DNA of 64,000 bases from an uncultured Chloroflexia bacterium (GTDB lineage Bacteria > Chloroflexota > Limnocylindria > Limnocylindrales > CSP1-4). Shown piece after piece: positions 13,392-33,865 of the stretch. The translations under genes and the position numbers were made by a program. Within the stretch, counting starts at the first letter, position 1. The number at the start of each line of letters is the position of its first letter. The notes under the pieces were generated by a model. That model saw only the letters and a program-made list of their open reading frames with translations, made no database searches and had not been told where the DNA came from. The DNA is taken from NCBI GenBank assembly GCA_963766735.1, contig CAVYBU010000008.1:128001-192000 (forward strand), written 5' to 3'.

Positions 13392-14981
13392 TCAGGGGCC
13401 GGGCGACGGCGGTGGCAGCGAAGGCGACGGCGGGGCCATCAGCGAACGCTCGAGCTCACGGTCCAGCCGGCGCTTGGTCAGCCACAGGTACGCAACCCCG
13501 AGCAGGATCAGCGCCAGGACGATCACCATCGCCGCGCGCCGGAAGTTCGTCTCATCGATCTTCGCGGTCGCGAGCGCCTTCGCGTCCCCGGCCTTGGTCA
13601 CGGCATCGGCGGACAGCTCGGCAATCGACGTGAGCTTGGTCGTGTGGACGGCCGCCTGGGCCTGGATCAGGCTCGTCTTGGCCCCGGCCAGCGCCACCTC
13701 GGCATCGGAGGTGATCATGCCCAGCCCCGCGGCATGCTGGATCTCGTCCTCCGCGTCCAGGTAGGCCTCCTCGGCGCTCGTGACCGCGTCCGAGATCCCC
13801 TCGATCTGCGAGTAGATCTGCGAATCCGGGTGGTGGCAGGTGTCGCACCGCCGGTTCTCCGGTTCCTGGAACTGGTCGAGCTCCAGGCGCAGCGTGTGGT
13901 TCTGCAGGTCATGGCACGTGACGCAGGCGTAGTCGGGCGGCGTGGGATGGAAGAAGAGCTCCGAACTCGGCTTGGTGACATCGTGGGTGCCGTGGCAGGT
14001 CCAGCACTTCGGGGCCACGGCCTGCAGCTCCGAGTGGCGGCTCTCCATGTACAGGTCCTGGGTCGCCGTGTGGCACTTGCCGCACACGTCGACCACGGTC
14101 GTCGACGTTGGCGGCTGGGCGTCGTGGGAGCCGTGGCAGCCCACGCAGGACGGTGCGCGAAGGTCCTTGTTGTCCAGGAGCGCGTGACCGTGAACGCTCT
14201 TGGAATAGACGTCGTACTGGTCGGTGGGGATCCCGTACGGCTCCATGCGCTTGGCGTCGGCGTGGCAGCTGGCGCACAGCTCCGGCACGTTGAGCGCAAA
14301 GGTCTTGGCCGTCGGGTCAGAGACCTTCTTGACGTCGTGCACCCCGTGGCAGTCGCTGCAGACGGCGACGCGAACGTCGTTGTTGACGATCAGCTGCTGG
14401 CCGTGGACGCTGGACCAGTACTTCGCGTACTGGTCGGTCGGCAGGCCGGACGCCTTCATCGTGTCGACGCTGGCGTGGCAGCTGCCGCACAGCCCCACCG
14501 TCCCCTGGCGGTCGGGCGCCCCCACGAAGCCGATCGCCGGGTCCATCGCCTTGGTGATCTGGTCCGATCCGGGATCGCCGCCGTGGCAGTCGGCGCAGGT
14601 CACGCCGCCCTGGCCATGGACGCTGTCCTGCCATTGGGCCGCGATATCCGCCTGCTTCGCGTTGACCGCGTTGTGGCAGTCGTAGCAGCCGTTCTCGCCC
14701 CCACCATCCGGGTGGGCGACCTGCGGCGGAACCGGCGGCGCGGTGGCAGGGGGGATCGTCGCCGTTGGAGCCGGCGTCGCGTACATCCACTCGGTGTCCG
14801 ACGGGCCGGGCGTCTGGGCGGCGGGCGCCGAAGCTGATGGGGACGGGGACCCCGCGGCGGCCGCCGACGGGCTCGGGCTCTCAGCGGAGGCCGAGAACGC
14901 GACCGCGAACCACGCGAGGCCGGCGAGGGCGAGCGTGCCGCCGAGCCGGACGAGCCGGCGCACCCTGGGCTGGTGGAGCAT
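13392..14981 (-). CDS. Membrane-anchored decaheme cytochrome c (partner of the Rieske/cytochrome b complex)
   Basis: Signal peptide, Ser/Pro-rich linker, 10 CxxCH motifs (CYDCH, CADCH, CGSCH, CSDCH, CASCH, CVGCH, CGKCH, CWTCH, CVTCH, CDTCH), a helical stalk and a C-terminal TM. Confidence 0.9.
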   Translation of the reverse strand: MLHQPRVRRLVRLGGTLALAGLAWFAVAFSASAESPSPSAAAAGSPSPSASAPAAQTPGPSDTEWMYATPAPTATIPPATAPPVPPQVAHPDGGGENGCYDCHNAVNAKQADIAAQWQDSVHGQGGVTCADCHGGDPGSDQITKAMDPAIGFVGAPDRQGTVGLCGSCHASVDTMKASGLPTDQYAKYWSSVHGQQLIVNNDVRVAVCSDCHGVHDVKKVSDPTAKTFALNVPELCASCHADAKRMEPYGIPTDQYDVYSKSVHGHALLDNKDLRAPSCVGCHGSHDAQPPTSTTVVDVCGKCHTATQDLYMESRHSELQAVAPKCWTCHGTHDVTKPSSELFFHPTPPDYACVTCHDLQNHTLRLELDQFQEPENRRCDTCHHPDSQIYSQIEGISDAVTSAEEAYLDAEDEIQHAAGLGMITSDAEVALAGAKTSLIQAQAAVHTTKLTSIAELSADAVTKAGDAKALATAKIDETNFRRAAMVIVLALILLGVAYLWLTKRRLDRELERSLMAPPSPSLPPPSPGP

Positions 14982-14998
14982 CGCTGTCCTCGGTCATC

Positions 14999-16079
14999 TC
15001 AGCTGACGTAGCCCCAGATCGTGAACACGATGAGGCCGACGATCACGAGGGTGGCTCCCGCGACGGCGATCTTGCGCCGGCGCATCACGACCTCCGGGTT
15101 CCGGTCCAGGAACGGCCAGATCACGAGCACCGCGACCCCGACGATGGGCACCATGATGCCGATCACCTTGATCGGGATGACCTTGAGCAGCTGGTAGACG
15201 CCGAGGTAGTACCACTCCGGCTTCGTGTGCTCCGGCGTCTGCAGCGGGTTCGCCTGCTCCTCCAGACCGGCCGGGAAGACCGAGGCGAGGACGACCAGGA
15301 TCGCCAGCAGGACGTACCAGGCCATCAGCTCGTCGATGATGTAGTGCGGGAAGAAGGGCCGCTGGGGCTCCTTCTCGATCTCGGGCGTCATGACGCGAGG
15401 CTCGGGGCGCTTGGGGTTCGCGAGGCCGAGCTGGTGCACGAGGATGAGGTGCACGGCGAGCAGCGCCACCAGGGCCAGCGGGCAGCACCAGGACGTGGAT
15501 CCCGAAGAAGCGGGTCATCGTGTCACCCGTGACATCCGCTCCGCCCCGGAGCAGCAGCAGCAGGGAGTCACCGATGAGCGGCACGCTGCCGGCGATCTCC
15601 GTGCCCACCACCGTCGCCCAGTAGGCGAGCTGGTCCCAGGGCAGCAGGTACCCGGTGAAGCCAAAGGCGAGCGTCACCATCAGGAGCAGCGAGCCGAAGA
15701 CCCAGGTGAGCTCGCGCGGGTACTTGTACGCGGCCTGCATGTAGACCCGCACCAGGTGCAGGACCACGAACAGGATCATCAGGTTGGCGGCCCAGTGGTG
15801 GACGGACCGGATCAGCCAGCCGAAGCTGACGTCGCTGGTGATGAACTTGACGCTCTCGTAGGCGGCTTCGGGCGTCGGCTTGTAGTACAGCGCCAGCAGG
15901 GTGCCGGTGGCCGCCTGGATGCCGAACAGGAACAGGGCGATGCCGCCGAAGTAGTACGTCTTCGCTGACATCGGGATGCGGACGTGCAGGCTGGCCCTGA
16001 TGACGGGACCGATCTTCGTCCGCTGGTCGAGCCAGCTGGTGGCCTTGCCGCCGGTGGGGGCCTTTGGGGTGGCCGCCAT
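14999..16079 (-). CDS. qcrB: Cytochrome b of a Rieske/cyt b (bc-type) complex, N- and C-domains in one gene; apparent +1 frameshift at about 15481
   Basis: GWLIRSVHHWAAN, LHLVRV, FTGYLLPWDQ and RFFGIHV; then PFFPH and KPEWY (Qo motif) in the next frame. Removing one C joins them (LPLALVALLAVH; 359 aa). Confidence 0.88.
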
Positions 16080-16080
16080 C

Positions 16081-16596
16081 TCAGGCCTCCGTCAGGTAGA
16101 TCTGGTCGCCCTCGACCGACACGGTGATCGGCGCCAGCGGTGCCGGCGGCGGGCCCGAGACGACCACGCCGGTCGCCGGGTTGAAGCGCCCGTCGTGGCA
16201 GGGACACTGGATGGCGCCGATCATGTCGTTCCAGGCGACGACACAGCCAAGGTGCGTGCAGATCGCGGAGAAGGCCTTCACGCCCTGGTCCGTGTTGACC
16301 ACGATCGCGGGCTTGCTCCCCATCGCGACGACCTTGCCGGCCCCGGCGGGGATATCCGCGGTCGTCCCGACCAGGACCTTGCCGCCGCCCGCGGAGGCGC
16401 CGTTCTTCGAGGGGATGAGAAACCCGATGACCGGGGTCAGGACCATGGCGGCCGTGGTCACGATGGTCAGGCCGCCCAGCCAGCGCAGGAAGCCTCGCCG
16501 CGTGGTCTGGCCGTCCGCCTCAGCCGGTGGACCACCACCCTCCGTGGCCGGACCACCACCCTCCGTGACCGATCCTGCGCGGGCCTCTGGTTCCAA
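16081..16596 (-). CDS. qcrA: Rieske iron-sulfur subunit (Tat-exported)
   Basis: TRRGFL Tat motif plus TM; CTHLGC and CPCHDG boxes; GPPPAPL. Start assigned to TTG 16596 after GGAGGG. Confidence 0.88.
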   Translation of the reverse strand: MEPEARAGSVTEGGGPATEGGGPPAEADGQTTRRGFLRWLGGLTIVTTAAMVLTPVIGFLIPSKNGASAGGGKVLVGTTADIPAGAGKVVAMGSKPAIVVNTDQGVKAFSAICTHLGCVVAWNDMIGAIQCPCHDGRFNPATGVVVSGPPPAPLAPITVSVEGDQIYLTEA

Positions 16597-16820
16597 TGCG
16601 CCCTCCGGGCGACGGGAGCACCAACCGCATGGTTGCAGCCCAATGGACGGATTGTGGGCGGTTGCACGGGCACAACAACCTATGGGTCGATATAGAAAAG
16701 GCACATTCCGGGTGACACATGGCCCGCCGCCGGAATGACCAGCGGCCCTGAGGCGCGCAGGCATCCCGCAGTCGCCGGTGCTCAGGCGCGCGCAGACGCC
16801 CGGCGCTCAGGCCCGGCGGG

Positions 16821-18575
16821 TCAGGATCTCGGGGTCAGTGGCCACGCGACACCAGTGGGAAGGTCCGGCAGCGTCGTGCCCTCCGTGCCTTCCTCGGCGC
16901 CTCCCTCCGTGCCGTGGAACGACGGCGACGTAACGGGCAGCACCGGATCCGCGTGGCAGCGGGCGCAGTACACGGGCTGGTGGCAGTAGGCGCACGCCGT
17001 GTTGCCCTGGTCGCGGATGACCTTGGCGTGGTTGGTCGACATCGTGTCGTGGTCCACGGTGACGGCGCCCGTGGCGTGGCAGTTGACGCAGTAGTCGCGG
17101 GCGTGGCACTCGCCGCACGAGTTTCCACCCGGGTCGATGTCGGTCGACACGTCCTTGTGGCTGAAGACCCACAGGTCATCGGCGTGCGTCGTCGGCGGCT
17201 CGCCGAGCGGCAGGCTGGCGACGGCCGGTCCGATCTGCGGGAACGTGTGGCAGGTGCTGCAGGCGGACGGGATGGTCTGCCTGGTGGCCACGCCATCCTT
17301 GACCAGGAAGTGGCCGCCGTCGTGGCAGCGGAAGCAGCCGGGGAAGTCCATGTGCCCCAGTTGGTTCGGGTACGTGCCGGGGGTGACGCTCATCTCCGGC
17401 GTCGACGACACGCGGTGGAGGGCCTTGATCTGCTCGATCGCATTGTCGATCTGGGCCGCCTTGGAGGCCGCGACGTCCGGGTAGTTGGCCGCGTAGAAGT
17501 TCTGCAGCTTGTCGATCTCGGCATCCGCCGTCGCGTCGTCCGGGTAGCCCGCCCACAGGAGCCGCATCCCTTCCCGTTTGATGTACGGGAGCGTGGAGTC
17601 GATATCGCCCTTGAACAGCTCGTAGTCCATGTCCGTGCGCGGGTTGGGGATGGCGTGCCCCGCCCGGTTGTGGCAGTCGTAGCACGTCATCAGGCTCATC
17701 GTCTCGGTTTCCAGGATCGCGTCGATGTCGGGCTGGACGTCCTCGGCAACGCTGATCTTGTCCTGGGCGATGAACTCCTGGGTCGATCCATCGCGACCCT
17801 CGGATACGACGTAGTCGATGGTGGCCTTGTGCTCGTCCGGCGAGGCGAACGTGAGCTCGCGGATGACATGCCAGTGCACGCCGCGCTCGGCATCGAGGGC
17901 ATCGCCGCCACCTGGGCGGATCATCAGCCCGACGAAGTTACGGGTGTTCGGCTCGTCCTCGAGGAACTGGGTGCTGGCCTTGAGGACCGCGAGGGCCTCC
18001 CGCTCAACGTCATGGCACTTGTCGCAGGTGTCGGACGCCTTGGGCAGGAGCGAGTGCTCGGGGGGCAGGATCGGCGTGGGGTAGGTGCCCAGGACGACGC
18101 TCACCAGCTGGCGGGTGCCGCTCATCTTGGCCTTGATCCAGCCGGCGATGCCCGGTTCCACGTGGCACTCGCCGCACGTGACCTCGGCGTGGGCGCCGGT
18201 CTTGTAGGCCTCGAGCTCGGGGTCCATGGTGTGGCAGCGTCCGCAGAAGTCGGCCGTCTCCGTCCAGTGGACCAGCGAGACGCCGGTGAACACGCCGACG
18301 AAGCCGAGCGCCCCCAGGATCAGCAGCAGGGCCAGCAACCCGCCCTTGGAGCTTGGGAGGTGGATCCGGCGGCCACGCAGGTAGAACGGGTTGCGGCGGC
18401 CACGCAGGTAGAACGGGTTGCGACGACGAGCCTTGGCGGGTTCAGAAACCCCCTCGGTCGCCACGGGCGCCTCCGCCCCCTTGGAAGGCCCGGCAACCGG
18501 CTCGTCACCGGCCCCCGGCGGCGTCACCCCCGCTTCGGCGGGCGGCAGGGCGTCGGGCGTCTCGGGGTCGCTCAT
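16821..18575 (-). CDS. NapC/NirT-domain multiheme cytochrome c, ImcH-like, 10 heme motifs
   Basis: N-terminal TM; WTETADFCGRCH, CGECH...AKMSG, CDKCH (NapC-like); GVHWHV, CYDCHNR, LPYIKR, GH...PGCFRCHDG, CSTCH; four more C-terminal CxxCH. Confidence 0.85.
   Translation of the reverse strand: MSDPETPDALPPAEAGVTPPGAGDEPVAGPSKGAEAPVATEGVSEPAKARRRNPFYLRGRRNPFYLRGRRIHLPSSKGGLLALLLILGALGFVGVFTGVSLVHWTETADFCGRCHTMDPELEAYKTGAHAEVTCGECHVEPGIAGWIKAKMSGTRQLVSVVLGTYPTPILPPEHSLLPKASDTCDKCHDVEREALAVLKASTQFLEDEPNTRNFVGLMIRPGGGDALDAERGVHWHVIRELTFASPDEHKATIDYVVSEGRDGSTQEFIAQDKISVAEDVQPDIDAILETETMSLMTCYDCHNRAGHAIPNPRTDMDYELFKGDIDSTLPYIKREGMRLLWAGYPDDATADAEIDKLQNFYAANYPDVAASKAAQIDNAIEQIKALHRVSSTPEMSVTPGTYPNQLGHMDFPGCFRCHDGGHFLVKDGVATRQTIPSACSTCHTFPQIGPAVASLPLGEPPTTHADDLWVFSHKDVSTDIDPGGNSCGECHARDYCVNCHATGAVTVDHDTMSTNHAKVIRDQGNTACAYCHQPVYCARCHADPVLPVTSPSFHGTEGGAEEGTEGTTLPDLPTGVAWPLTPRS
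18367..18420. repeat. Perfect 27-bp tandem duplication (RRNPFYLRG x2)
   Basis: cggcggccacgcaggtagaacgggttg repeated twice. Confidence 0.9.
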
Positions 18576-18582
18576 CGCGTCC

Positions 18583-19182
18583 TCAGTTCATCAGGGCCGC
18601 AACGGCGCGGTCCATCTCGTCCCTGGGGAGCGCACCGATCCGGACCTCCCGGACCTTCCCGTCAGGGCCGATGAAGAAGTGGGTCGGGATGCCCATCGAC
18701 CGGTAGGCCGCCGCAATGTCGGCATTCGGGTCCACCACGATGGGGAAGGTCAGCGCGGCCCTGCCGGCGTACCCGCTGACATCCTCGGCGGTCTCGTTGA
18801 TGAACACGCCCAGGACCACCAGGCCCTGGTCCTTGTTCGCGCGGTACGTGGCCTCCAGGTCCGCCGACTCGGTCCGGCAGTCGGGGCACCACGAGGCGCC
18901 GAACGTCAGCCAGACCGGCTTGCCGGCGTAGTCCGAGAGCGACACGGTCGTGCCGTCGTAGGTGACGCCGGTGAAGTCCGGCGGGACCGCGCCCACCACG
19001 GGGGCAGCGGCAGCCGCCCCCTCGCCCAGGTCGATCTGGGTCACGCCGTCCGATGGCCCCTGGCCGCTGGCCGCGTAGACGAGGACCCCGATCACGACGA
19101 CCGCGATCACGCCGATGCCGATCGTCTGCAGCCGGCCGGCCGTACGCCCGGAGGACCGGGCCGTGGTTCCCGCTGCGCTCAT
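18583..19182 (-). CDS. resA: ResA/TlpA-family membrane-anchored thiol-disulfide oxidoreductase
   Basis: N-terminal TM, ASWCPDC and GIPTHFFIGPDG; lies in the cytochrome c maturation operon. Confidence 0.85.
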   Translation of the reverse strand: MSAAGTTARSSGRTAGRLQTIGIGVIAVVVIGVLVYAASGQGPSDGVTQIDLGEGAAAAAPVVGAVPPDFTGVTYDGTTVSLSDYAGKPVWLTFGASWCPDCRTESADLEATYRANKDQGLVVLGVFINETAEDVSGYAGRAALTFPIVVDPNADIAAAYRSMGIPTHFFIGPDGKVREVRIGALPRDEMDRAVAALMN

Positions 19183-19211
19183 GGTGCCCTGACTCCCTTC
19201 GTGCCGTCGGC

Positions 19212-20123
19212 TCAGCCGAGGCCGGAGTAGCTGTGGAGCCCGCCGAAGAACAGGTTACCGAAGTAGGTGAACAGCGTGGCCGCGAAGCCGATCACGAGCA
19301 GCACTGCCGCCCGCTTGCCGCGCCAGCCGCGCATGACGCGGGCGTGGAGGTAGGCGCCGTAGATGAACCAGGTCACGAGCGACGCGGTCTCCTTGGGGTC
19401 CCAACTCCAGTAGCTGCCCCACGCCGTGTCTGCCCAGACTGCGCCGAGGACGATCGTCAGGGTGAGGAACGGGAAGCCGACGATGACCGCGCGGTACCCG
19501 ATGTCGTCCAGCACGTCCAGCCGCGGGAGGCCCCAGCCGCCGGGCTCGTCGCGGTTCGTGACCCAGGCGATGAACACCTGCAGCAGGTACAGGACCGACG
19601 CGGCGAAGGCGATGGTGAAGCTGCCGTAGGCGACGATTGCCACCGCGACGTGGACGGTCAGCAGGAGGTTGTTCTGCAGGGCCGGGACGAGCGGCGCGAT
19701 GTCGGCCGGAATGGTCCACGCGTAGAGCAGCATCGCGAGCGCGACCGGCATCGCGATCAGCGCGAGGATGCGCTGGTGATACCGGCGCTCGAACAGCATG
19801 TAGGCGAGCAGGATCCCGAACGCGAACGCCATCGAGAACTCGTACATGTTCGTGAACGGGCCGTAGCCGGTCGCGATGGTTCGGAACACGAGGCTGGCGA
19901 GGAGCGTGAACACTGCCAGCCAGCCCAGCATCGTGGCGTAGCGCCCGATGGCCGCCGTGCGGGGCCCGGAAGTGATGCCCACGGATCCGCTGGTCACGGG
20001 TGCACCGGCCGTCTGCATGCGGGCGGCCCGGAGTCCGGACACCGCGTACATCAGGTAGAAGATCGTGGCGAGCCCGGTGCTCAGCATCGCCGCGATGAAC
20101 ATGTACCCCGAGAGCTTTTCCAT
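19212..20123 (-). CDS. ccsA: System II cytochrome c synthase subunit ResC/CcsA
   Basis: WGSYWSWDPKET (WWD domain), PALQ, NMYE and C-terminal GLHSY. Confidence 0.92.
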   Translation of the reverse strand: MEKLSGYMFIAAMLSTGLATIFYLMYAVSGLRAARMQTAGAPVTSGSVGITSGPRTAAIGRYATMLGWLAVFTLLASLVFRTIATGYGPFTNMYEFSMAFAFGILLAYMLFERRYHQRILALIAMPVALAMLLYAWTIPADIAPLVPALQNNLLLTVHVAVAIVAYGSFTIAFAASVLYLLQVFIAWVTNRDEPGGWGLPRLDVLDDIGYRAVIVGFPFLTLTIVLGAVWADTAWGSYWSWDPKETASLVTWFIYGAYLHARVMRGWRGKRAAVLLVIGFAATLFTYFGNLFFGGLHSYSGLG

Positions 20124-20136
20124 GGCGGGGACTCCC

Positions 20137-21603
20137 TCAGCTCTGCGCCGGCGTCTGCAACGCCGCGCGAATGTCAGTGACCAGGTTCTCGAAATCGGTG
20201 GCCTGGGAAACGTCCTTGGTGGTCAGGGTGGCCATGCCGAGGACCGCGCCCCCGTTCGGGCGGGCGACGATGCGGCCCCAGACTCGCTTGTGGCGGATCA
20301 TAAAGCGGATCGAGAAGCCCCCGAACAGCAGGAGCGAGCCAATCCAGATGAACAGGACCCCGGGATCGCGGGCCACGTTGAGGCCGGTGAACTGGGTCTC
20401 GCGCTCGAAGGTGACCGTGAGATCACCCAGCTGGGTGGCCACGCCCTGGTCGATGATGCCGTCCGCGATCTGAGAACCCTCACCCGCGGTGTACAGCTCC
20501 GCCTGGATCTGGCCGGGCTTGATCATCCCGTCGCCGCTTCCCAGCGTGCCCACCAGCCAGATCACCTCGCCGGCGCCCGGGACGGTGAACGAGCCCACCG
20601 GCCGGTTGTCCGCGTTCGTCCGCCACGCGAGCGGCACGCCGCCCGAGTAGAGGATCTCGCCCGCGGCATCCTTGACCGTCATCACGGCCGCGGCCCCGAA
20701 GAAGGCCTGGTAGAAGGTGAGGTTTCCGTAGCGGTACGGATCGTTGACCCGCACGGTGTGGCGGTCGATCTCGGCCCCGTCCTTGAACACGACGATCTGG
20801 CTGGCGTAGTCGATCGGCGAACCCGTGACAGTGTCGTACTTGTCGGTGAAGTCGATCAGCTGGACGCTGAGGCCCGGTTCGGCGACCACGGGGAGCGTCT
20901 GCCCCTCGGCGACCGTGAACCCAGCGTCGCGATAGCCGAACATGCCGCCGATGATGGCGCCCGCCAGGATGACGACGATCGAGACGTGGGCGATCAGGCC
21001 CGCCCACGCTGCGTACCGGAAGCGGTCCCCGTAGAGGTGGATCGCGCCGTCGTCGGTCGAGAGGAAGCGGAAATGGCGGCCTCGCATGACGCTCTCCACG
21101 ATCGCCAGCGTCTCAGCGGGGGTATGCCGGACGACGATGGCCTCGTGCTGCGGGGCGTGCTCGAAGAACTGCGGCCCCACGTCCACGCGGGGCTTGGTGG
21201 TGGTCCGCCAGATTCCAGGGATCCGGTGGATCGAGCAGGCGATCAGGCTGATCGTCAGGCCCGCCACCAGGATCCGGAAGAGGATCGAGTTGAAGACCTC
21301 GAACATCTGGATGGTGTCCAGGAACCCGGTCCACCCGCCGTACTTGGGACGGATCTCATCCAGCCAGTTGGCCTTCGCGTCGGCACTGACCAGGACCCCG
21401 GGAGGCGCCTGGATGATGAGCGATCCGACGACGCCGAGCGCGGCGATGGCCAGCATGAGCACCATGGCCGTGCGCATGGACGAGAGGAAGTGCCACAGCC
21501 CTTCCAGCGCCCGGTCGACGCGATCCATGAACGAGGGCCCCGCCGCCGCGGCGGCCGGAGCGCCATTCGGCGGAAGCGGCCGGGTGTGGACCTCTTCGGT
21601 CAT
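20137..21603 (-). CDS. resB: System II cytochrome c biogenesis protein ResB/CcsB
   Basis: FLSSMRTAMVLM...GSLIIQ, IACS, H in the third TM, RVNDPYRY, FYQA and RDPG before the last TM. Confidence 0.88.
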   Translation of the reverse strand: MTEEVHTRPLPPNGAPAAAAAGPSFMDRVDRALEGLWHFLSSMRTAMVLMLAIAALGVVGSLIIQAPPGVLVSADAKANWLDEIRPKYGGWTGFLDTIQMFEVFNSILFRILVAGLTISLIACSIHRIPGIWRTTTKPRVDVGPQFFEHAPQHEAIVVRHTPAETLAIVESVMRGRHFRFLSTDDGAIHLYGDRFRYAAWAGLIAHVSIVVILAGAIIGGMFGYRDAGFTVAEGQTLPVVAEPGLSVQLIDFTDKYDTVTGSPIDYASQIVVFKDGAEIDRHTVRVNDPYRYGNLTFYQAFFGAAAVMTVKDAAGEILYSGGVPLAWRTNADNRPVGSFTVPGAGEVIWLVGTLGSGDGMIKPGQIQAELYTAGEGSQIADGIIDQGVATQLGDLTVTFERETQFTGLNVARDPGVLFIWIGSLLLFGGFSIRFMIRHKRVWGRIVARPNGGAVLGMATLTTKDVSQATDFENLVTDIRAALQTPAQS

Positions 21604-21617
21604 ATCCGACTACCTCC

Positions 21618-22410
21618 TCAGAGACCGAAGGGCGACCCGAGGGTCGCCAGCCGGCCGAGTGTGTTGGTGAGCATCAGGACGCCGAGCAGCACGAGCAGGA
21701 AGCCCGTGACCACGTCGACGGCACGGTGGTGGCGCCCGACCACGGTCAGCCGCCGGGAGACCCAGGACGCGCCCAGGGCCACCGCCAGGAACGGGATCGC
21801 GAGGCCCGCGGCGTACGCGACCAGGAGCACGGTCCCCTGCAGGACGCTCGACGTGGCCGTGGCCAGGCCGAGGATCCCGCCCAGGATCGGGCCGATGCAG
21901 GGGCTCCAGCCCGCCGCGAACAGCAGGCCGAACAGGAAGGACCGCGGGTAGCCGGGCCGCTCGCCCGGGCTGGCGATCGACGCGAAGCGCGAGCCCGCCG
22001 GAGGCGCCACCGTTGTCGTCGGAGCCGCCGCCGGCCATCACCAGCCCGCCGCCCATCGAGGGCATGGCGCGAGTGTCGCGCCACAGGGCACGAACGTTGA
22101 TCACGCCCGCCACCTGAAGGCCGAGGAAGACCAGGAGCGCTCCACCGATGGTCGTGAGCACGCGGCGGTCGATGAAGGCCCCCAGGGCGCCGATCACGGC
22201 GTAGAAGGCGACGAACACGAGCGAGAAGCCGATGACGAACGAGAGCCCGTGCATGAAGGCCGGGCGGCGACCGGTGGTGCCCTCACCGGTCGCGCCCATC
22301 ATGTAGCCGAGGTACGCCGGCACGAGCGGGAGGCAGCAGGGGGACGCGAAGGACACGACGCCGCCGATGAAGGCGATGCCGATGCCCAGGATGCTGCCGA
22401 GCTCGTTCAC
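21618..22410 (-). CDS. ccdA: Cytochrome c biogenesis protein CcdA; apparent +1 frameshift at about 21995
   Basis: FASPCCLPLVPAYL in one frame; GWSPCIGPILG...YAAGLAIPF in the next. Removing one G gives 263 aa. The GTG start overlaps the upstream stop. Confidence 0.85.
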
Positions 22411-23624
22411 GGCACCGTGCTCGCCGCAGGCGATGCGGAGGGGGCCGGGGTGGTGCTGAGGGCCGGGGATGCGGCGGGCGAGTTGCCGGGGATCATCGAG
22501 GACTGGGCCAGCGAGTCGAGATGCGACCGGACGGTCTGGGCAAGAGGCGAGGTCGGGTCCAGGTCGATGACCGTGTTCCACTCGCGCTGGACCGCGGTCC
22601 AGTCCGGGGGCGTCTGGTTCAGGTACAGGAAGCCCAGGTCGTAGTGGGCCTCCGCGTTCTTCGGGTCGATGACCAGGACCTTCTTCCAGGTCGTCTCGGC
22701 GGCCGGCAGGCTGCCCAGGTTGAAGCTGACGGCGCCACGGGCCAGCATGGCGTCGACGTTCTCAGGCTCAATGGCGAGGAGCTTGTCGAGCCAGTTGCCG
22801 GCGTCCGCGTACTGCTCACCCGCGTAGTACTCGTCGGCGAGGGCGAGGAGTGCGACCGTGTCATTGGGGTTGGCGGCAAGGCTTTCCATCAGCGAGCTGA
22901 CCTTGGCGAGATCGACCGCCGGCGGCCCCTGGGTGGCCTGGGCCACGGCGCCGGGCTCCTGGGAATCGCCACCGATCGCGCCGACGACCTGTATCCCGCC
23001 GAACCCGACGGCGACGATGGCGATCACGGCGACGCTGGCGATCACGAGCCGCTTCCAGGGGTTGGCGGCCTGGGGAGCCGTGGCCGCTGCGGCGGCTGCC
23101 GGGCGGATGGCCTTGCGATGCTGGATCGGTGCCGCGACCGGGCGCGTGGCGGCCTTCGGCTTCGGCTTGGCATCCGGGAGCATGTCCGGGTGGGCGCTCG
23201 GGGTCACCGATGCGTAGAGCAGCGCGAGGTCGTCCGTGTCCGGGTCATCGGCTGTGGGCTCGATTCCGGCGTCCGCTGCCGCCAACGCTGCTGCGGGGAT
23301 GGGGTCTGTTGCCGGAGCGGAGCCCCGGCGGGCCGGAGGTGTCGCCGGCCCGCCGGGTACGACCGCAGGCGGCCTGGCCGGGCTCCTGAGGGCCGAGCCC
23401 TGGAGGCCGACTGGGTCGGTCAATTGGAGGTACGCCTCGTCCAGCGCCGTGGCCTGGGCGTGAGCCCACCGTCGGAGCTCGGGAGGCGCGGACGCGAGGT
23501 ACTGGCTCGCGGCCTGGTGGAGGTTGTCGAGATCCTCGGGGGAGGCGCTCTTCGGGAGTCCGAGCCGGGCCAGCAGCTCGTTCTCTGCAGCGGACCCTGA
23601 GGTGGGGAGGCCGGGGCCGGTCAT
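22407..23624 (-). CDS. Membrane protein with a J-like N-terminal domain, central TM and extracytoplasmic TPR domain (CycH/CcmH-like accessory of cytochrome maturation)
   Basis: TPR repeats (NPNDTVALLALADEYY, DPKNAEAHYDLGFLY) after a TM; translationally coupled to ccdA. Confidence 0.75.
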   Translation of the reverse strand: MTGPGLPTSGSAAENELLARLGLPKSASPEDLDNLHQAASQYLASAPPELRRWAHAQATALDEAYLQLTDPVGLQGSALRSPARPPAVVPGGPATPPARRGSAPATDPIPAAALAAADAGIEPTADDPDTDDLALLYASVTPSAHPDMLPDAKPKPKAATRPVAAPIQHRKAIRPAAAAAATAPQAANPWKRLVIASVAVIAIVAVGFGGIQVVGAIGGDSQEPGAVAQATQGPPAVDLAKVSSLMESLAANPNDTVALLALADEYYAGEQYADAGNWLDKLLAIEPENVDAMLARGAVSFNLGSLPAAETTWKKVLVIDPKNAEAHYDLGFLYLNQTPPDWTAVQREWNTVIDLDPTSPLAQTVRSHLDSLAQSSMIPGNSPAASPALSTTPAPSASPAASTVP

Positions 23625-23881: not shown

Positions 23882-26254
23882 TCAGGGGCTCGTCGGCAGC
23901 GCGTAGGTGTAGTCGACGTGAGACTTGCCGTGGCAGGTGAGGGTGCAGCTGCCCCATGCGGTCGGCGTCGCGGCCCTGAACATCTCGTTCGCGCCGTGCG
24001 GGATTACGTTGGGAGCGAAGTTCACCAGGCCGGTCGCTGGCGCCTGCCCATTCACGGCGAGGGCAGACCCGTGGATACGGAAGTGGCACTCCGCGCAGAT
24101 GGCGTTGCCCTGGCCGGCGCCGCGGACGTCGATGTCGCGGCCACCGACACCGTTGCCGGAGATCTCGTTCATGTGGTAGCCGTGCCAGTTGAAGTTCGTG
24201 TCGGCTCGGTAGTCGGCGCTATCGTCGACCATCGGCGCTTCCGCATGGCACACGTAGCAGAGCGCGAAGTCCTGCGCCTGGTAGAGCCCGCGCGGCCTGA
24301 GGTCTCGATCCCTGTACGGCGCGATCAGGATCCCGCGGTTCGGTGAGGCATGGTTGCTCAGGATCGCGTCCGCGGCCGGCTTCGGGACCTGAACGGTCGC
24401 CGAGGCGTCGCCGTGGCAGTTCTCGCAGCGGACGGTGTCCTGGGTTCCAAAGACCCACAGCTTGTAGGGGGACGTCCCGGCAAGGCTGAGCGCCATTGCG
24501 TTCGTCTGGTTCTTCCCCGCGGCCTCCACTGGGTGATAGGAGACGTTCGCCGGGTTCAGCTCGATGCCCTTGTCAAGCGACCAGCGACTCGGATGGGTCG
24601 GATCCTGCGCGGGCAGCTTCGTGAAACCGGAGTGGCATTTGAAGCACAGCTGGTACTCGAAGCCGGACGTGTTCTGAAGCGTGTAGGTCGGCGCCTCACC
24701 GGCCGCGCCGTTGACCACCGCGACGCCGGACGCACCGGCGATCGCACCGGAGGCCGACCAGCCGCCGACGCTGTTCACGGGTCGCGTGGCGTCCGCGAGG
24801 TGCGGCTGGTGACAGTCTCCACAGGCGCTGTGCCGGTCCAGCGTGGCGCCGAACTCATCCTCCTTGCCCGAAACGTGGCTTGAGGGCGACGTGGCCGGGT
24901 GCGAGTACCACGACGACGTCGTCGGGTCGTTCGCCGGGAGCGACGAGCTGGACCAGTCGCTCTGGACGTCGCTCGACGCGCCCGTGCCGTCGTGGCAGAC
25001 GAAGCAGGTCGTCGACTGGGGGCCGGACTGCTGGAGCAGCATCAGCCCCTGGGCATCGTGGGCCGCGTGGCACGAGGCGCACGCGTCTGAGGCCAACCCG
25101 GAGATGATGTGCGGCGAACCTCCGGCGGCGGCTGCCGCGACGGACGTCTGCAGCGCGTACGTGGCCGTCGCGCCCCTGCCGGTCGACGCTGCCAGAGAGC
25201 GGGCGGTCGAACCGATGGAGGGGTCCAGCCGGTAGAGGGGGACGGGCTTGTCAACGGGCTTGCCCTTGCGCTGTCCGGGCGACAGGTCGAGGGACGGCTT
25301 GGTTCCCAGGGCCAACTCCGCCTCGGCCCCGGGAAGCTCGGTGGACCCGTCCATGAGGCGGAACAGGTAGTGCGCGCCCCAGTTCGCATCCACGGTGGCC
25401 CGGATGGCGAATTCGATCTCGGTGAAGCTGTGGGCGGGGAGCGTGATTTCCGTGAGCTCCCGGCCGGCGCTGGTCCTGCCCTGGACGGGCGTCGCCAGCG
25501 GATCGGTGGCCTGGCCGAGGCGCAAACCGGCGGCCTCGATCGGCTCCTGGCGCGGATCGAAGACTCGGCCGTCGTCGGACGCGCCGTAGAACGCCTTGCC
25601 CAGATCCGGGTCCACCATGGGCAGGGTCATCCAGTCGGCGGACGCGCCGGAGAACTGAAGCGCCGGCGCGATCGCGGCGTCGGCATCGGAATCGTTGACA
25701 ACCTGGAACCGGACTCGGTACACGGTGAACCGCTGCGCCGCGTCGAGGGGTGCGTCCAGCTGACCTGGGTCGGTCACCGCACCGGCCTCGCTGACGGTAT
25801 CGATCCAGACATGGTCCACACGCGGACCGGTGGGCTCGACCGAGGGCTCAGCGGACGGTTCAACCGACGGCTCGACCGAGGGCTCAGCGGACGGTTCGAC
25901 CGACGGCTCGACCGACGGCTCAACCGACGGCTCGACCGACGGCTCGACCGACGGCTCGACCGAGGGAGCCGCGGTGGGTGCAGCAGACGGCTGGACCGAC
26001 GGAGCCGGGGTGGGCTCGACCGAGGGAGCCGGGGTGGGCTGGACCGACGGAGCCGGGGTGGGCTGGACCGACGGAGCCGGGGTGGGCTGGACCGACGGAG
26101 CCGGGGTGGGCTGGACCGACGGAGCCGGGGTGGGGTCCAGGGCGCGTGCGGCCGGCACGGCGGGAGTCAGCGCTCCCACGGCGCCCGCAAGGACGAGGAG
26201 CACCCCAAACAGGGGACCGGCCCGGCGGCTTGCGGGTCGTTGCTGGCGGTTCAT
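23882..26254 (-). CDS. Secreted or surface multiheme cytochrome c (7 CxxCH + 1 CxxxCH) with a Pro-rich stalk and a beta-rich non-heme domain
   Basis: Signal/TM, (PTPAPSVQ)n and (PSVE)n repeats, then CASCH, CFVCH, CGDCH, CFKCH, CENCH, CYVCH, CAECH and CTLTCH. Confidence 0.88.
25828..26135. repeat. Coding tandem repeats: about 6 x 24-bp (PTPAPSVQ) and about 11 x 12-bp (PSVE/PSAE) units
   Basis: ggctggaccgacggagccggggtg and ggctcgaccgac arrays, in frame within the cytochrome gene. Confidence 0.9.
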
Positions 26255-26457: not shown

Positions 26458-27673
26458 TTACGGAAGGTACGGGTTCGGGGTCGGTCCGACGAAGTCGCCG
26501 ACCACCATCGTCCCCGTGGGATCGTGACAAGCCTGGCACGTGCCGCGGTTGTCGATCTTCAGGAGGCGAGAGTCGCCCACCGGGGCAGCCGCGCCGCCCG
26601 GGAAGTCCATGTTGGCGGAGTTGTAGCCCGTCATCTGGGCGTTGGAACCGTGCGACACGTGGCACGTGATGCAGTTCCGGGTGGGGTTGAGGGACGTGTG
26701 CCGATACTTGAAGATCGCATCGGCTTCCTCCACATCCCACCCCTGGCTCAGGTAGCGGGAGTGGCACGTGGTGCACCAGTTGGCGATCTCCGTGGTGAAC
26801 GTCGAGGGCATGCCGTTGGGCGCGTCGTTGGACCCGCCGCTCGCGGCATCCCACGGGACGTAGCGCCGGAAGTAGTCACCAGCCGTTGATGACAGGCCGA
26901 GCCCAACAACCTGGCTCGCGTAGAGCGTTCCGGTGCCGCCGGCGGTCTGGATGATGGTGAAGTTGCGCGAGTCGTCGTTCCGGGAGCGGCGCGTCCTGGA
27001 CGACCACTCCTGCAGCCGCAGGCACAAATGCATCGGTGCCGATGGCGACCGGTGCGGGGATGGGGTTGAGGATTCGGTAGTTGCCGTTGCCGTGCGGGTT
27101 GTGGCAGGTGCCACATTCCATCTCGACTTCGGGTCCCGCGTACGCGGCGAGGTCGTTGGGGCCGTTGCCCCAGGCGACGCCGTCGGCCGGTCCCACCACG
27201 CCTGCCACGTTGGGCAGGTGGGCGGAGGTCACCGGCTGCGATCCGGCGGTCCGGACCGGCACCTTGGCTCGCTGGGAGACGTTTGACGTGCCTCTCGGAA
27301 CCGAGAGACGCGCAGCCTCACCCGACCCAATGCGGGCATTGACGAAGCCGCCACCTCGGAGATAGCCAAGAACGACGGAGCCACGGTATGTCGTGGTCCC
27401 GACGCGGTACTGGATGCCGCTCTCGACATCGATCTTGGAACCGAGGCCGGTGGCCCCGTGGCAGGACAGGCAGAGCGCAGTCCCCTCTTCGACGAGGAGG
27501 AACATGCCCTGCGCCGTGTGGGCGCGGTGGCAGCCAGCGCAGTTATCGGAGTTGATCCCGTTTACGCCGCTGTTGTTCGCAGCCACATGTGGTCCACTGT
27601 CTGCGAAGACGGGGACCGCGGCAAGGAACAGCCAAAGACTTCCGGCTGCAATCAGCAACATCAGCCTTCTCAA
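26458..27673 (-). CDS. OmcS/CwcA-family hexaheme cytochrome c (candidate cytochrome nanowire subunit); apparent frameshift at about 26980
   Basis: TTG start after AAAGGAGGTGA; Sec signal ending VFA|DSGPH. Joined frames give CAGCHRAH...LL...CLSCH...GGGF...SAH...CGTCHNPHG..NYRIL...NWCTTCH...YRH...CITCHVSHGS...NRGTCQACH (about 404 aa), the motif order I recall for OmcS. Confidence 0.8.
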
Positions 27674-27777
27674 ACTGTCCTCACCTCCTTTCTCTGTGCT
27701 ACGTGGGCTTGACATTGGCCGCCACGATTGGCGGCGGCGCAGAACTCCGGTATCCACCTCCCTTTGCTGGTTCGGGT

Positions 27778-28848
27778 TCAGTAGCTCCACAACTGCACAC
27801 GGTTGTTGGCGGAGTCGGCGATGTACAGCCGGCCTCGTGCATCGACCGTGATGCCGTTGGGGTAGGCGAAGGCTCCGTCGCCCGAGCCCTGGCTCCCGAA
27901 GCTGCCCAGGTACTCGAGTCGCGACGACCCTTCTTGGTAGCGTCCGAAGACGAAGACGGTGTGACCGGTCGAGTCAGCGACGTAGACCCGACCCTGTCCG
28001 TCCAGGGCCACCCCTCGCGGCAGGCCAAGGTTCCCCTCGCCGGCTCCCCGTCCAACACGGGCGACGATGGCCCCATCCTGACCGTAGACCAGCAGGCGGC
28101 CGTTGTTGCTGTCGGTCACGTACGCGTAGCCGGCATCGTCGATGGCCACGCCGTTGGGAAAGTCGAGGTCATCGTTCTCGCCGAAGATGCGGACCTGCGC
28201 GCCGGATGGATCGAACACCCGCACCCGGCCCGGGACGTCGCCGACGTCGGTGACGTACAGGTTGCCCGCCGCATCGAACGCGAGCCCCAGCGGCTGCCAG
28301 CCCGGGGCGTCCGCTGGCGGGGAAAACGCCCGCAGATAGGCGCCCTGGGTGTCGTAGATGTAGATCGATGCCGTCTGACGGTCCGAGACATAGATCTCGC
28401 CCGTGAGCGGGTTGAGCGCGAGGTAGGTCGGCACGTGGTCGGTGCCCGTGGAACTCGGCGGCAACATGGCCTGCACCTCGTTGCCACCGGTGTCGTAGAT
28501 GCCCGCCGTCTGGTCCCCGGCGGTCTCGCCGATGTAGATCCGCTCGCCGTCAGGCGTCACGGCGACGCTCATCGGACGTGAGGCGCCGTAGATCGACGTC
28601 GTGTACGTGGGCATGATCGTCTCGCCCGGGATCGTCGGGACGGGGATCGGCTGGCGGAACAGCAGGTACCAGATCGCGAGGCCGAGCAGCGCCAGGAAGG
28701 CCAGCAGCAGCATCAGCAGCAGCAGCAGCCGGCGGCGCCGGCGGTTGTCCTCCTCCTCGAGGACGTCCTCCGGAGGGGCCGTGTCGCCCGGTGATGCCGC
28801 CGCGCCTGTCGGGGGGATGGCATCCACGTCGTCGCCGGGAGCGGTCAT
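27778..28848 (-). CDS. NHL-repeat six-bladed beta-propeller protein with N-terminal membrane anchor
   Basis: Repeated PxGvAvD motifs (PLGLAFD, PNGVAID, PRGVALD, PNGITVD) with YVxDS. Confidence 0.9.
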   Translation of the reverse strand: MTAPGDDVDAIPPTGAAASPGDTAPPEDVLEEEDNRRRRRLLLLLMLLLAFLALLGLAIWYLLFRQPIPVPTIPGETIMPTYTTSIYGASRPMSVAVTPDGERIYIGETAGDQTAGIYDTGGNEVQAMLPPSSTGTDHVPTYLALNPLTGEIYVSDRQTASIYIYDTQGAYLRAFSPPADAPGWQPLGLAFDAAGNLYVTDVGDVPGRVRVFDPSGAQVRIFGENDDLDFPNGVAIDDAGYAYVTDSNNGRLLVYGQDGAIVARVGRGAGEGNLGLPRGVALDGQGRVYVADSTGHTVFVFGRYQEGSSRLEYLGSFGSQGSGDGAFAYPNGITVDARGRLYIADSANNRVQLWSY

Positions 28849-29906
28849 CAGTTGCTCCCTTCGGCGCTGGGTGACGGCATGACATCCGGGTGAGCCTGTG
28901 TGCCGTCACTCACGCGGCTCAGCCCGAGCTGCGCGGCCTGGCTCTCGGCGTCCAGCTCGAGGGCCTTCCGGTACCAGACCGCGGCCGTTGCCGGGTCGCC
29001 GCTCGCCTCGGCCAGCAGCCCCAGCCCGATCCGGGCATCGACCCCAGCATCACCGTCCGCGATGGCCTCGAGGCGGGCAACCGAGTCGGCCGGGGCGGAG
29101 GACTCACCGGCCGCGAGTACCGCCATCGCGGTGGCCATGGCGTCCGCCCACTCGGCCTCCCCCGCGTCGCCCGTCGCCGTGTAGGCGTCGGCCAGCGACC
29201 GGTACGGATCCGGCCAGCGCGTGGGCACGAACAGGATGGCCTTCCGCAGGGGTTCGAACGCCTCCTCCGGCTTGCCGGCCTTCACGTACGCGGCGCCGAG
29301 AAGGTTCATCGCGTCCGCGTCGGTGCGCTTGATCGCCAGGGCCCTGAGGAGGTTGTCCACGGCGTCGTCCGGCCGGTCCTGCTGCAGCGCGATCTCGCCG
29401 AGCCCGTAGTAGGCGGTCTGAAGCATCGGGTCCACGTTGGCCTGCTCGGTGTCCCTGGCGATCTCGACGACCTTCGCGAAGTCGGCCGCCGCCGCGTCGG
29501 CGTCGCCGGTCTTCTGGAACGCGAGGCCGCGGCTGATGTAGGCGGCCTCGTCCCGCTTCCCGGTCCTGATGATCTCCGAGTACTGCGCAATCGCATCCTC
29601 GTACCGACCTGCCGTGAAGTACAGGTCTCCGAGCCGGCCCCGTGACGCGATGTCGGTTGGGTCCGTGCGGACAGCCTCCTCGACCACCGCCATCTCGCGG
29701 TTCACGATCGAGGGCGCCGGCGCGCGGAATCTGTCAACGGCGTAGAAGGCGACGAAGGCGACGATACCGACGAACAGCAGCAGCGCGAGCCGCTTGATCC
29801 AGCGGTTCAGCTGCGCCTCGGGCATCGAGGTCAGGGACGTGACCCGGGACATGAATGGCACCTGTACTCCTTGGCCGGCGGAATCAGGGAGACCGACCTG
29901 CGTCAA
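28848..29906 (-). CDS. Membrane-anchored TPR protein
   Basis: Single TM followed by multiple TPR motifs (RLGDLYFTAGRYEDAIAQY, AYYGLGEIALQQ, AMNLLGAAYVKAG). Confidence 0.85.
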   Translation of the reverse strand: MTQVGLPDSAGQGVQVPFMSRVTSLTSMPEAQLNRWIKRLALLLFVGIVAFVAFYAVDRFRAPAPSIVNREMAVVEEAVRTDPTDIASRGRLGDLYFTAGRYEDAIAQYSEIIRTGKRDEAAYISRGLAFQKTGDADAAAADFAKVVEIARDTEQANVDPMLQTAYYGLGEIALQQDRPDDAVDNLLRALAIKRTDADAMNLLGAAYVKAGKPEEAFEPLRKAILFVPTRWPDPYRSLADAYTATGDAGEAEWADAMATAMAVLAAGESSAPADSVARLEAIADGDAGVDARIGLGLLAEASGDPATAAVWYRKALELDAESQAAQLGLSRVSDGTQAHPDVMPSPSAEGSN

Positions 29907-30081: not shown

Positions 30082-30600
30082 TCAGGCCGGCAGCAATTCC
30101 TTGGGCGTGTCGAAGTTGCCGGGCACGTCCACCTCGATGACGTCGCCGGTGATCCGGATCGGGAACTGCCGGAGGGGCGTGGTGGGCTTGCCGGAGATCA
30201 CGCTTCCGTCCAGGGCGAACTGGCCGTCGTGGCAGTGGCAGGAGAACTGCCCGACGTCCGGGAGCCAGCCGTAGGAGCACAGCCCGTGGGTGCAGCGCGG
30301 GTCGTAGGCGATGATCTCCCCGGAGGACTTCTTCACCAGCCACACGGAGGCGGCCGTCGGCCTGCCGCCCAGGTCCACGGTGAACTCGACCTCCGTGGGG
30401 GTGCCCGGGACGAGGTCGTCCGGGTCGGTGTCCAGCTCCACGGGGACGGGCGGCCCGGCGCAGCCGGCGAGGATGCTGCCCAGGCTGCCCGCCGCCAGCG
30501 CGCCGACGCCGATGAGCAGCAGGACACGACGCCTTGGGACCGGCGTGGTGCGTGGATCGAAGGCCGGTGCGGTCTGCGGCCGGCGGAGGTCGTCGCCCAT
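30082..30600 (-). CDS. Second Rieske [2Fe-2S] protein (Tat-like lipoprotein)
   Basis: RRRVLL, LAGC lipobox, CTHGLC and CHCHDGQF; start ATG 30600. Confidence 0.8.
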   Translation of the reverse strand: MGDDLRRPQTAPAFDPRTTPVPRRRVLLLIGVGALAAGSLGSILAGCAGPPVPVELDTDPDDLVPGTPTEVEFTVDLGGRPTAASVWLVKKSSGEIIAYDPRCTHGLCSYGWLPDVGQFSCHCHDGQFALDGSVISGKPTTPLRQFPIRITGDVIEVDVPGNFDTPKELLPA

Positions 30601-30613
30601 AACGGGCGACAGA

Positions 30614-31024
30614 CTAGCCCGGAATCGGCGAGGGCTGCAGGCTGGGGTCCGCGTCGGCGGCAGGTGCGGGCTTGCCGGCGGCACCGACCACCGCGCGGAT
30701 CGCGGCCAGGAAGTCGTCCGGGCGGGTGGACAGGGTCTCGCGGCGAAGGGTCCAGGCGCGGGTGGTGGTGATGTCCACGTCCAGCACCACGGGGCAGTCG
30801 GACCGGCGGACGACATCTGCGGCATCAACCGCGCCGCCCTCCTCCACCACGATCACGTCCGGGTCCAGGGCGATGGCGGCATCAACCGCCTCCGTGATGC
30901 CGATGTCCACGGCATCCACGGCCACCCCGGGCTCGGCGGCGAGCATCTTCAGCAGCCCCTCCCCCATCAGGGGATGGCTGTACAGGAGAAGCACGCGCAC
31001 CGGATCTGGCGACACGATGGGCAT
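30614..31024 (-). CDS. Stand-alone degenerate receiver-like domain protein
   Basis: VRVLLLYSHPLMGEGL...DPDVIVVE follows the NarL-type receiver pattern, but the acidic pair and phospho-Asp are not conserved. Confidence 0.6.
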   Translation of the reverse strand: MPIVSPDPVRVLLLYSHPLMGEGLLKMLAAEPGVAVDAVDIGITEAVDAAIALDPDVIVVEEGGAVDAADVVRRSDCPVVLDVDITTTRAWTLRRETLSTRPDDFLAAIRAVVGAAGKPAPAADADPSLQPSPIPG

Positions 31025-31174: not shown

Positions 31175-31867
31175 TCAATCCCGGTTCGGCTCCTGGTTCG
31201 CGTAGCCCTGCCGAACCGCGTAGGCGGCCGCCTGCACCCGGTTGGTGAGGTGGAGCTTCTCCAGGGCGTTGTGGACGTGGTTCTTGACCGTGCCCTCGGT
31301 GATCGTCAGCTCGTTGGCGATCTCCTTGTTGGACATCCCCGCGGCGACCAGCTGGAGGATCTCCGACTCGCGGCGGGTCAGGACGGTGGGCTGGGGTGCT
31401 GCCGCGGCCTGGCCGCGCGTGGGGATCCCGCCGGTGCGCAGGGCCTCCAGCAGCCGGGTGGCCACCGCGGGGGCGATGGGCGCCTCGCCGCGCATCACGC
31501 CGCGCATGTCCTCGAACAGCTGCTCTGGGCGGACGTTCTTGAGCAGGTAGCCGTTGGCGCCGGCCTTGATCGACTCGAACAGGTCGTCGTCGTCCTCGGA
31601 CACCGTGAGCATGACGATGGGCGTCTTGATCCCGGCAGCACGGATGGCCGCAACGCCGTCAACGCCCGAGGCGACAGGCATGTTCACGTCCATGATCACG
31701 AGATCGGGATGGAGCGCGCGGACCTTCTCCAGGGCGTCGCGACCGTTCTCACCCTCGCCCACGACCGTCATGTCGAACTGGGCGCTGATCAGGGTCGCGA
31801 GCGCCCTGCGGAACAGGGGCTGGTCATCGACGAGCAGCACCCGGAGCTTCGGAGGAAGGTGTTCCAC
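31175..31867 (-). CDS. NarL/FixJ family response regulator (REC + LuxR HTH)
   Basis: VLLVDD, PDLVIMDVNMP, GANGYLLK, LTRRESEIL...GMSNKEIA...TVKNH. Confidence 0.92.
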   Translation of the reverse strand: MEHLPPKLRVLLVDDQPLFRRALATLISAQFDMTVVGEGENGRDALEKVRALHPDLVIMDVNMPVASGVDGVAAIRAAGIKTPIVMLTVSEDDDDLFESIKAGANGYLLKNVRPEQLFEDMRGVMRGEAPIAPAVATRLLEALRTGGIPTRGQAAAAPQPTVLTRRESEILQLVAAGMSNKEIANELTITEGTVKNHVHNALEKLHLTNRVQAAAYAVRQGYANQEPNRD

Positions 31868-33635: not shown

Positions 33636-33865
33636 CGCATCGAATGTGCCTTTCGATAGACATGGTGCCATAGGGCCGGGTGGCCCGTGCTCGCCCGGGT
33701 CACGTGGCCTGCAGCGGCGGGCTCGGTCACGGGCTGCCGCGCGCGGCGTTGAGGCGGACGGTTGCCGCCGAGGGTTGCGCGGGCCGCTGCGGTGTTGCCG
33801 TCGGCGTGTTGCCGTCGGCGGAAGGCGAGCTCCGCCGGATCAGAGCCGGATCAGCGCCTGGGGTC

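Follow-up and report, generated by a model that had tools for sequence, protein, structure and literature searches.

A hexaheme cytochrome family of Limnocylindria-type Chloroflexota with a predicted, distant OmcS-like fold

Do two overlapping reading frames of an uncultured Chloroflexota bacterium conceal the subunit of a cytochrome nanowire? The question is raised by a stretch of 64,000 nucleotides from a member of the Limnocylindrales (class Limnocylindria; GenBank assembly GCA_963766735.1, contig CAVYBU010000008.1, positions 128,001 to 192,000), called the window here, in whose listing of open reading frames (ORFs) two overlapping minus-strand ORFs appear at 26876..27790 and 26458..27114. 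A preliminary description of this DNA had read them as a single hexaheme cytochrome of the OmcS family, hidden by a frameshift and forming filaments. To our knowledge, solved OmcS-type wires come from Geobacter alone, and claims of widespread cytochrome nanowires draw mainly on sequence homologues detected by BLAST. The best overall explanation of the locus, which we consider likely, is that it holds one gene for a protein of OmcS-like fold with a presumed place in an electron path, broken in the window by an artefact.

Both ORFs belong to a single gene, which encodes a Sec-exported hexaheme c-type cytochrome. As read from the sequence, a Shine-Dalgarno-like GGAGG (27684..27688, on the minus strand like every other window feature given below) stands about 10 nucleotides upstream of a TTG start at 27673, and orthologue starts of the form MKKLMLL or MRRLxLL coincide with the position of this TTG. 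The start opens a 24-residue signal peptide (27602..27673), with a presumed cleavage site after VFA and before DSGPH; the mature N terminus D-G-G-P-H is at least 90% conserved in a 113-member alignment of the family (A3). The N-terminal half of the gene (26981..27673; 231 codons) carries hemes 1 to 3 and is 94% identical over 202 amino acids to P0006, the closest intact database relative, and the C-terminal half (26461..26979; 173 codons, stop at 26458-26460) carries hemes 4 to 6 and is 88% identical to P0006 over 173 amino acids. In the upstream frame, 231 family-like residues run to ...QDAPLP at 26981 and are followed by 34 unrelated codons and a stop, while the +1 frame holds unrelated sequence and then 173 family-like residues from NDDSRNFTIIQ at 26979. 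The break is placed at 26979/26980 because a single residue of P0006, a Gly, separates its alignments to the two halves; base 26980 is the first G of this Gly codon, whose last two bases are gone. The joined protein has about 405 amino acids, about 381 of them mature, with three CxxCH motifs in the N half (residues 45, 68, and 187) and three in the C half (residues 69, 103, and 148). The first of the six, CAGCHRAH, is encoded at 27518..27541, and the codon of its last His, His52 (27518-27520), is the one that aligns with His16 of OmcS. The join at about 26980 into a secreted hexaheme of about 404 residues, as first proposed, is thus borne out, and the eight window motifs listed at that time are all present, six of them being CxxCH.

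Why, then, is the gene broken? Logan contigs from four public runs, each with a sampled-word share of at most 0.49, were compared with the stretch. Two contigs of related strains (92% and 97% alike) span the break, and both insert two bases (GC or AC, plus strand) behind 26979; with either insert the lone G at 26980 is completed on the coding strand to a Gly codon, GGC or GGT, so the window is short of two bases. The genome as a whole (3.6 Mb in 35 contigs, completeness of 93.85%) was scanned for split genes, taken as sites where one strongly coding frame gives way to a second such frame long before reaching its stop codon. GC periodicity alone flagged 229 sites, a figure swollen by antisense shadow ORFs, and a six-frame codon-model filter left 95 candidates, the hexaheme gene included. 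In a random sample of 10 from the other 94 sites, 5 are a single Pfam family or architecture divided into two pieces, 1 consists of two complete genes, and 4 are undecided. The split families of the sample include Peptidase_M6 (model positions 5-126 and 124-293 of 294 in separate pieces), Beta_elim_lyase (1-161 and 157-287 of 288, again in separate pieces), a transketolase with truncated pyrimidine-binding and C-terminal domains, HisKA_3 (1-27 of 68) followed by HATPase, and a transporter of the MFS family. Examples of candidate split sites lie at C8:60440-62129 (L083), C25:55626-57153 (L087), and C8:215506-216593 (L084). Such numbers suggest a high indel error rate throughout the assembly, and because dozens of ordinary genes are split in it, the loss of two bases from the Gly codon is most probably an error of assembly or sequencing.

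A real break, which would make the window copy a recently inactivated pseudogene of the source strain, is unlikely. It would agree with the clean loss of two bases, unlike the classic homopolymer error, and with the contigs of the exact strain: across 26979/26980, the four runs yielded no window-identical contig, several bins being uncovered and the identical contig of run X1 beginning at 26993. The window copy nevertheless shows no further defects, keeping all 29 invariant family residues and 54 of the 55 near-invariant ones (the one change being Phe for Tyr), gene splits are common in the assembly, and the gene is intact in six genomes of the same genus. Its C half is 73 to 80% identical to those of orthologues, and intact orthologues are 76 to 89% identical among themselves; judged by these sequence identities, it is no more diverged than the C halves of intact orthologues. 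Within the genus, 14 of 18 genomes have a match, a full-length single open frame in 6 of them, and the orthologue of genome G009 (G009:C2:58714-59933) lies in four frame pieces. The database protein P0240, another orthologue, is a mistranslated mix of frames. Programmed +1 ribosomal frameshifting would also join the two frames, the second being +1 relative to the first, yet its probability is close to nil: all six full-length same-genus orthologues are single-frame, an ordinary Gly codon occupies the site in related contigs, and no conserved shift site was found. It was rejected on account of the in-frame orthologues and the ordinary Gly codon. The gene is therefore split in the window, as the preliminary description had it, although most likely by a defect of assembly, and it can hardly be called hidden, with intact orthologues common and already annotated.

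What kind of family stands behind the broken copy? The only Pfam model above its gathering cut-off (20.6) is PF09699, Paired_CXXCH_1, with 54.4 bits for the N half and 31.9 bits for the C half. An NCBIfam search of the hexaheme found nothing specific, TIGR03508 (DmsE/MtrA decaheme) reaching 45.7 bits against a cut-off of 192.2. Among 8000 scored candidates, 977 match at an E value of at most 0.001, nearly all of them 400 to 420 amino acids long, and the orthologues are filed as "CXXCH cytochrome family" or "cytochrome c3 family" only. A library of 50%-identity representatives contains 1791 clusters at E of at most 0.001 and 359 at E of at most 1e-30. Clusters of a protein atlas are likewise described by generic doubled CXXCH or cytochrome c3 terms only, and come from Chloroflexota, Actinomycetota, Bacillota, and others. 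In species-representative genomes, 75 of 76 loci bear Chloroflexota-lineage labels, many of them Limnocylindria or Limnocylindrales, and the remaining one is labeled Actinomycetota. This locus (L003, on a contig of 4162 bases) has the same arrangement of NHL, hexaheme, and octaheme genes as the window and encodes exactly P0003, the orthologue modeled below; its label may be a binning or labeling error. No hexaheme match was obtained in twelve small genomes from a second family of the same order. At seven loci (L038, L045, L051, L053, L057, L062, and L064), the N and C halves have their best tblastn matches at separate places, about 1.5 to 2.7 kb upstream of the main match, and their sequences suggest a second, tandem hexaheme paralogue.

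The His residues of the family follow a strict pattern, numbered here on mature P0003. Invariant in A3 are the six CxxCH motifs, H128, H170, and H319, and conservation reaches at least 90% at H5, H28, and H303. These twelve positions account for every His of the window protein, a number that would fit six bis-His hemes with none to spare. In OmcS, His16 is presumably the residue that ligates a heme across the subunit interface. The His that follows the first CxxCH by three residues had been singled out as its equivalent, and this assignment is upheld: HMMER aligns the two, and the residue (His52 of the window protein) shows at least 90% conservation in A3 and no variation in A4, an alignment of 17 distant members. 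Most family members end in a Pro-rich tail, GPTPxPxLP (window 26461-26490), and the 17 distant members, like OmcS, end directly after heme 6.

How close is this protein to OmcS? OmcS of Geobacter sulfurreducens (PDB 6EF8/6NEF; 407 residues) and the hexaheme are both secreted proteins of some 380 to 410 mature residues, with six CxxCH in the same order. In both, hemes 1, 3, and 5 are followed by a His at +3, another His stands close to the mature N terminus, and hemes 4 and 5 have an xRH between them. The two proteins differ in their loops (89 residues in OmcS versus 34 between hemes 4 and 5, and 72 versus 45 between hemes 5 and 6), in the Pro-rich tail of most hexaheme family members, and in the lack of any similarity at BLAST level. 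OmcS is known from its filaments, the hexaheme from genes and a model. Against PDB sequences, profile A3 finds OmcS at an E value of 0.0036 with hemes 1-2 and 3-4 aligned in order, and profile A4 finds it at 0.0078 in a single colinear stretch, profile positions 53-345 against OmcS 7-338, running through hemes 1, 3, 4, and 5. The first HMMER domain of A3 lays sCAgCHRah on residues 8-16 of OmcS, ECEGCHTMH, so that the family CHRAH falls on C12-H13...H16. By these profile alignments and the earlier pairing of motifs, a colinear OmcS His exists for each of the six candidate distal His; the OmcS motifs then quoted (CEGCHTMH, CLNCH, CSSCHDPHG, YRIL, EWCANCH, CLSCHRAH, GGDFG, LRH, and RALCNKCH) all occur in the OmcS chain printed by HMMER. 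The available part of a survey of OmcS homologues (PMC10954620) counts as such proteins with E<1e-5 and >75% coverage, and the hexaheme falls outside a definition of this type. Its relation to OmcS is one of fold and ligand pattern, not of membership by the usual sequence criterion.

The fold was approached through a model of P0003, taken as the mature chain and without hemes, whose sequence is 86% and 80% identical to the two window halves. With the 113-sequence alignment, AlphaFold (AF2) gave a mean predicted local distance difference test score (pLDDT) of 89.1 and a predicted template modeling score of 0.88, and only the N-terminal 40 residues of the monomer, where heme 1 and His28 lie, score low (pLDDT of about 50 to 60). 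When compared by VIA-align with 48,161 representative chains, the model has only two matches with a Z score of at least 2: OmcS (6ef8_A) comes first, at Z 8.0 and a root mean square deviation of 4.6 Å over 208 aligned residues with 26% identity (model 1-364 against chain 3-407), and MtrA second, at Z 5.3. OmcE, OmcZ, and the archaeal filaments lie below the Z 2 listing of this search, which does not in itself exclude them. An earlier AF2 model, built from 73 close sequences with the signal peptide kept, had a pLDDT of 63.7, and its VIA search was swamped by signal-peptide helices, with OmcS at Z 3.6. On the strength of the better model, the hexaheme is predicted to have a true but distant OmcS-like fold. 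The assignment to an OmcS family is thus supported in part, by the only full-length structural match and by a marginal colinear profile match; alignment and structure, the checks proposed for it, gave a fold match at Z 8.0 next to sequence E values of only 0.0036 and 0.0078 and no Foldseek support.

Several observations weigh against this reading. A Z score of 8.0 is "middling" on the scale of the tool, and the model is that of an orthologue and lacks hemes. Foldseek searches of the PDB with both models returned nothing at E of at most 0.001, OmcS taking rank 11 at E 2.9 with the poorer model, and phmmer with each half and the narrow profile A1 found no OmcS among PDB sequences at E of at most 10. 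In the two profile searches, MtrA (E 4.5e-4 and 8.7e-6) and OmcE (E 0.0042 and 1.8e-4) score equal to or above OmcS by way of the paired-CXXCH motif. The first Cys of the six motifs stands at 9, 47, 140, 239, 328, and 400 in OmcS and at 21, 44, 163, 278, 312, and 357 in the mature family protein. Two further points speak against polymerization: CxxCHxxH occurs generally in paired-CXXCH cytochromes, MtrA using it within one chain, and the Geobacter omcS neighborhood (PMC10599522) is unlike the cluster of the Limnocylindria-type hexaheme. Could the likeness to OmcS be unspecific, so that an ordinary paired-CXXCH multiheme cytochrome has its six hemes in similar order by coincidence or convergence? 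The E values of OmcS, no better than those of MtrA or OmcE, would allow it, as would the single Pfam model above cut-off and the empty Foldseek result. We hold it to be quite improbable, as the MtrA and OmcE profile matches are confined to a motif of 35 to 40 residues, whereas that of OmcS covers at least 290 colinear profile positions (A4), and as OmcS superposes on the model over 208 residues at 26% identity when just one other of the 48,161 chains exceeds Z 2.

The genes around the hexaheme form a conserved cluster. Upstream lie a gene for an NHL-repeat beta-propeller protein (27778..28848; Pfam NHL, 105.9 bits), which adjoins the hexaheme gene in 71 of the 76 loci, and one for a TPR protein (28848..29906), a neighbor conserved in 65. 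Downstream is a 790-residue octaheme cytochrome (23882..26254; 70 of the 76 loci) with eight heme motifs, seven CxxCH and one CxxxCH, which starts with a hydrophobic segment, either anchor or signal, and continues into a long Pro/Thr/Ser-rich linker. This linker is repetitive in Pro, Thr, Ser, Val, and Glu, with PTPAPSVQ and PSVE units, and about 200 residues without a Pfam match separate it from the heme domain. Genes for a second TPR protein, a CcdA/DsbD-like protein, ResB, CcsB, and ResA follow at 18583..23624 and represent system II cytochrome c maturation (ResB, 225 bits; CcsB by TIGR03144, 231.5 bits against a cut-off of 187.6). The next block, at 13392..18575, encodes a NapC/NirT-like decaheme (584 amino acids, 10 CxxCH), a Rieske protein, a cytochrome b, and another decaheme (529 amino acids), and is a probable quinol-oxidizing module. 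The order TPR, NHL, hexaheme, 790-residue cytochrome, TPR, CcdA-like, ResB, CcsB, ResA is conserved; the second TPR gene is present at 60 of the 76 loci, ResB at 55, CcsB at 54, CcdA at 50, and ResA at 38, many of these loci being shortened by contig ends. Just upstream of the cluster, the window has a second Rieske-domain protein (30082-30828) and a GAF/HisKA_3 histidine kinase (31824-33671), which may be regulatory or redox partners. A search of the 93.85%-complete genome for Omp85 or LptD gave no match, and its controls were positive.

This setting differs from that of Geobacter omcS. The host of the hexaheme is labeled Chloroflexota and has no Omp85 or LptD that we could find, and in place of NHL, TPR, octaheme, and system II genes, Geobacter omcS is accompanied by omcT, a spermidine synthase gene, a gene for a hypothetical protein, and a regulator gene (PMC10599522). 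The tetraheme nanowire subunit OmcE (PDB 7TFS) resembles the hexaheme in having a signal peptide, an early mature His, and then CxxCHxxH, but it has four hemes in 232 residues and aligns by its paired-CXXCH stretches alone. Decahemes of the MtrA/DmsE type (PDB 6R2Q chain A) share Paired_CXXCH_1 motifs with it and give the second structural match and the best profile E values; they have ten hemes, match only in repeats of a short motif, and their model TIGR03508 stays below its cut-off. According to the part of PMC7399161 available to us, a Coriobacteriales (Actinobacteria) genome encodes an OmcS homologue with 28% BLASTP identity and all six CxxCH. That protein, likened to ours by description only, is detectable by BLASTP, unlike the hexaheme family, which single-sequence search misses. 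The accessible portion of PMC10954620 reports OmcS homologues in Geobacter and its relatives, Anaeromyxobacter, and Geoalkalibacter. NHL-repeat proteins stand beside extracellular multiheme cytochromes in the Uet pathway (PMC10734462) and in clusters of Desulfovibrio ferrophilus (PMC5815863), as far as the consulted passages of these papers go; those bacteria have outer-membrane porins and other cytochromes, and the comparison with the hexaheme cluster is by description only. A literature search, with supplementary tables outside its range, turned up no description of an OmcS-like protein from Limnocylindria or other Chloroflexota.

What might the hexaheme do in such a cell? Quinol would be oxidized at the Rieske/cytochrome b/NapC-like module, the electrons would then pass to the tethered octaheme spanning the wall, and the octaheme would hand them to the secreted hexaheme outside the single membrane, which could exchange them with extracellular acceptors or donors, either direction of flow being allowed. 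Whether the hexaheme also polymerizes head to tail as OmcS does is a nearly balanced matter, which we see as leaning slightly toward no. If it formed an OmcS-like polymer, His52 of each subunit would supply the remaining ligand of heme 5 in the next; in OmcS and OmcE, according to the part of PMC12954529 at hand, which gives no residue number, the interfacial heme is ligated by His from two subunits. The His at the position of OmcS His16, the invariant mature N terminus with a His of its own, the want of any spare His, and the unplaced N-terminal arm are features that an OmcS-type polymer needs, and they support this reading, although none proves it. The presence of CxxCHxxH in particular is no proof of polymerization, because MtrA also uses the motif, within a single chain. 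A predicted dimer of two copies with four hemes scored 0.26, 0.40, and 0.45 (median of 0.40 against a mark of 0.42, with controls at 0.00) and is counted neither way.

The same OmcS-like fold could instead belong to a protein that does not polymerize, a surface electron carrier or terminal reductase or oxidase, monomeric or bound to the NHL protein or octaheme, in which a folded-back N-terminal arm would let His52 ligate a heme of its own chain. We regard this as quite possible, if somewhat doubtful. The constancy of the NHL propeller (71 of 76 loci) and octaheme (70 of 76) as partners suggests a fixed complex, the Uet pathway pairs NHL proteins with extracellular cytochromes (in the part of PMC10734462 seen), MtrA provides the precedent of an intrachain CxxCHxxH, and the loops around hemes 4 to 6 are much shorter than those of OmcS. 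On the other hand, OmcS is the sole full-length fold match, the six candidate distal His are each colinear with an OmcS His, and the N-terminal arm is the one part that the monomer model cannot place. A fuller proposal, that Limnocylindria-type Chloroflexota, which are common in soil, sediment, and groundwater and apparently have no outer membrane, build OmcS-type nanowires from the hexaheme, with the NHL and TPR proteins as assembly or anchoring apparatus and the tethered octaheme as feeding base, is tentative and on present evidence rather doubtful.

The frameshift itself is without biological interest, which lies in the family behind it. For annotation, the locus teaches that such genes go under no closer name than "cytochrome c3 family" and, in indel-rich assemblies, are cut into fragments. 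Single-sequence search fails to connect the hexaheme family with OmcS, yet the confident model of P0003 singles out OmcS from nearly all other chains compared. The family is very large, and its gene cluster is tightly conserved in an abundant uncultured lineage; in the genome studied here, no outer-membrane genes were found. If the hexaheme polymerizes, long-range extracellular electron transfer would reach a major group of soil and sediment bacteria, and its NHL and TPR neighbors would be the first candidates for a wire-assembly machinery. Should the nanowire reading be true, a complete nanowire system would have evolved, or been inherited, far outside the Geobacter lineage.

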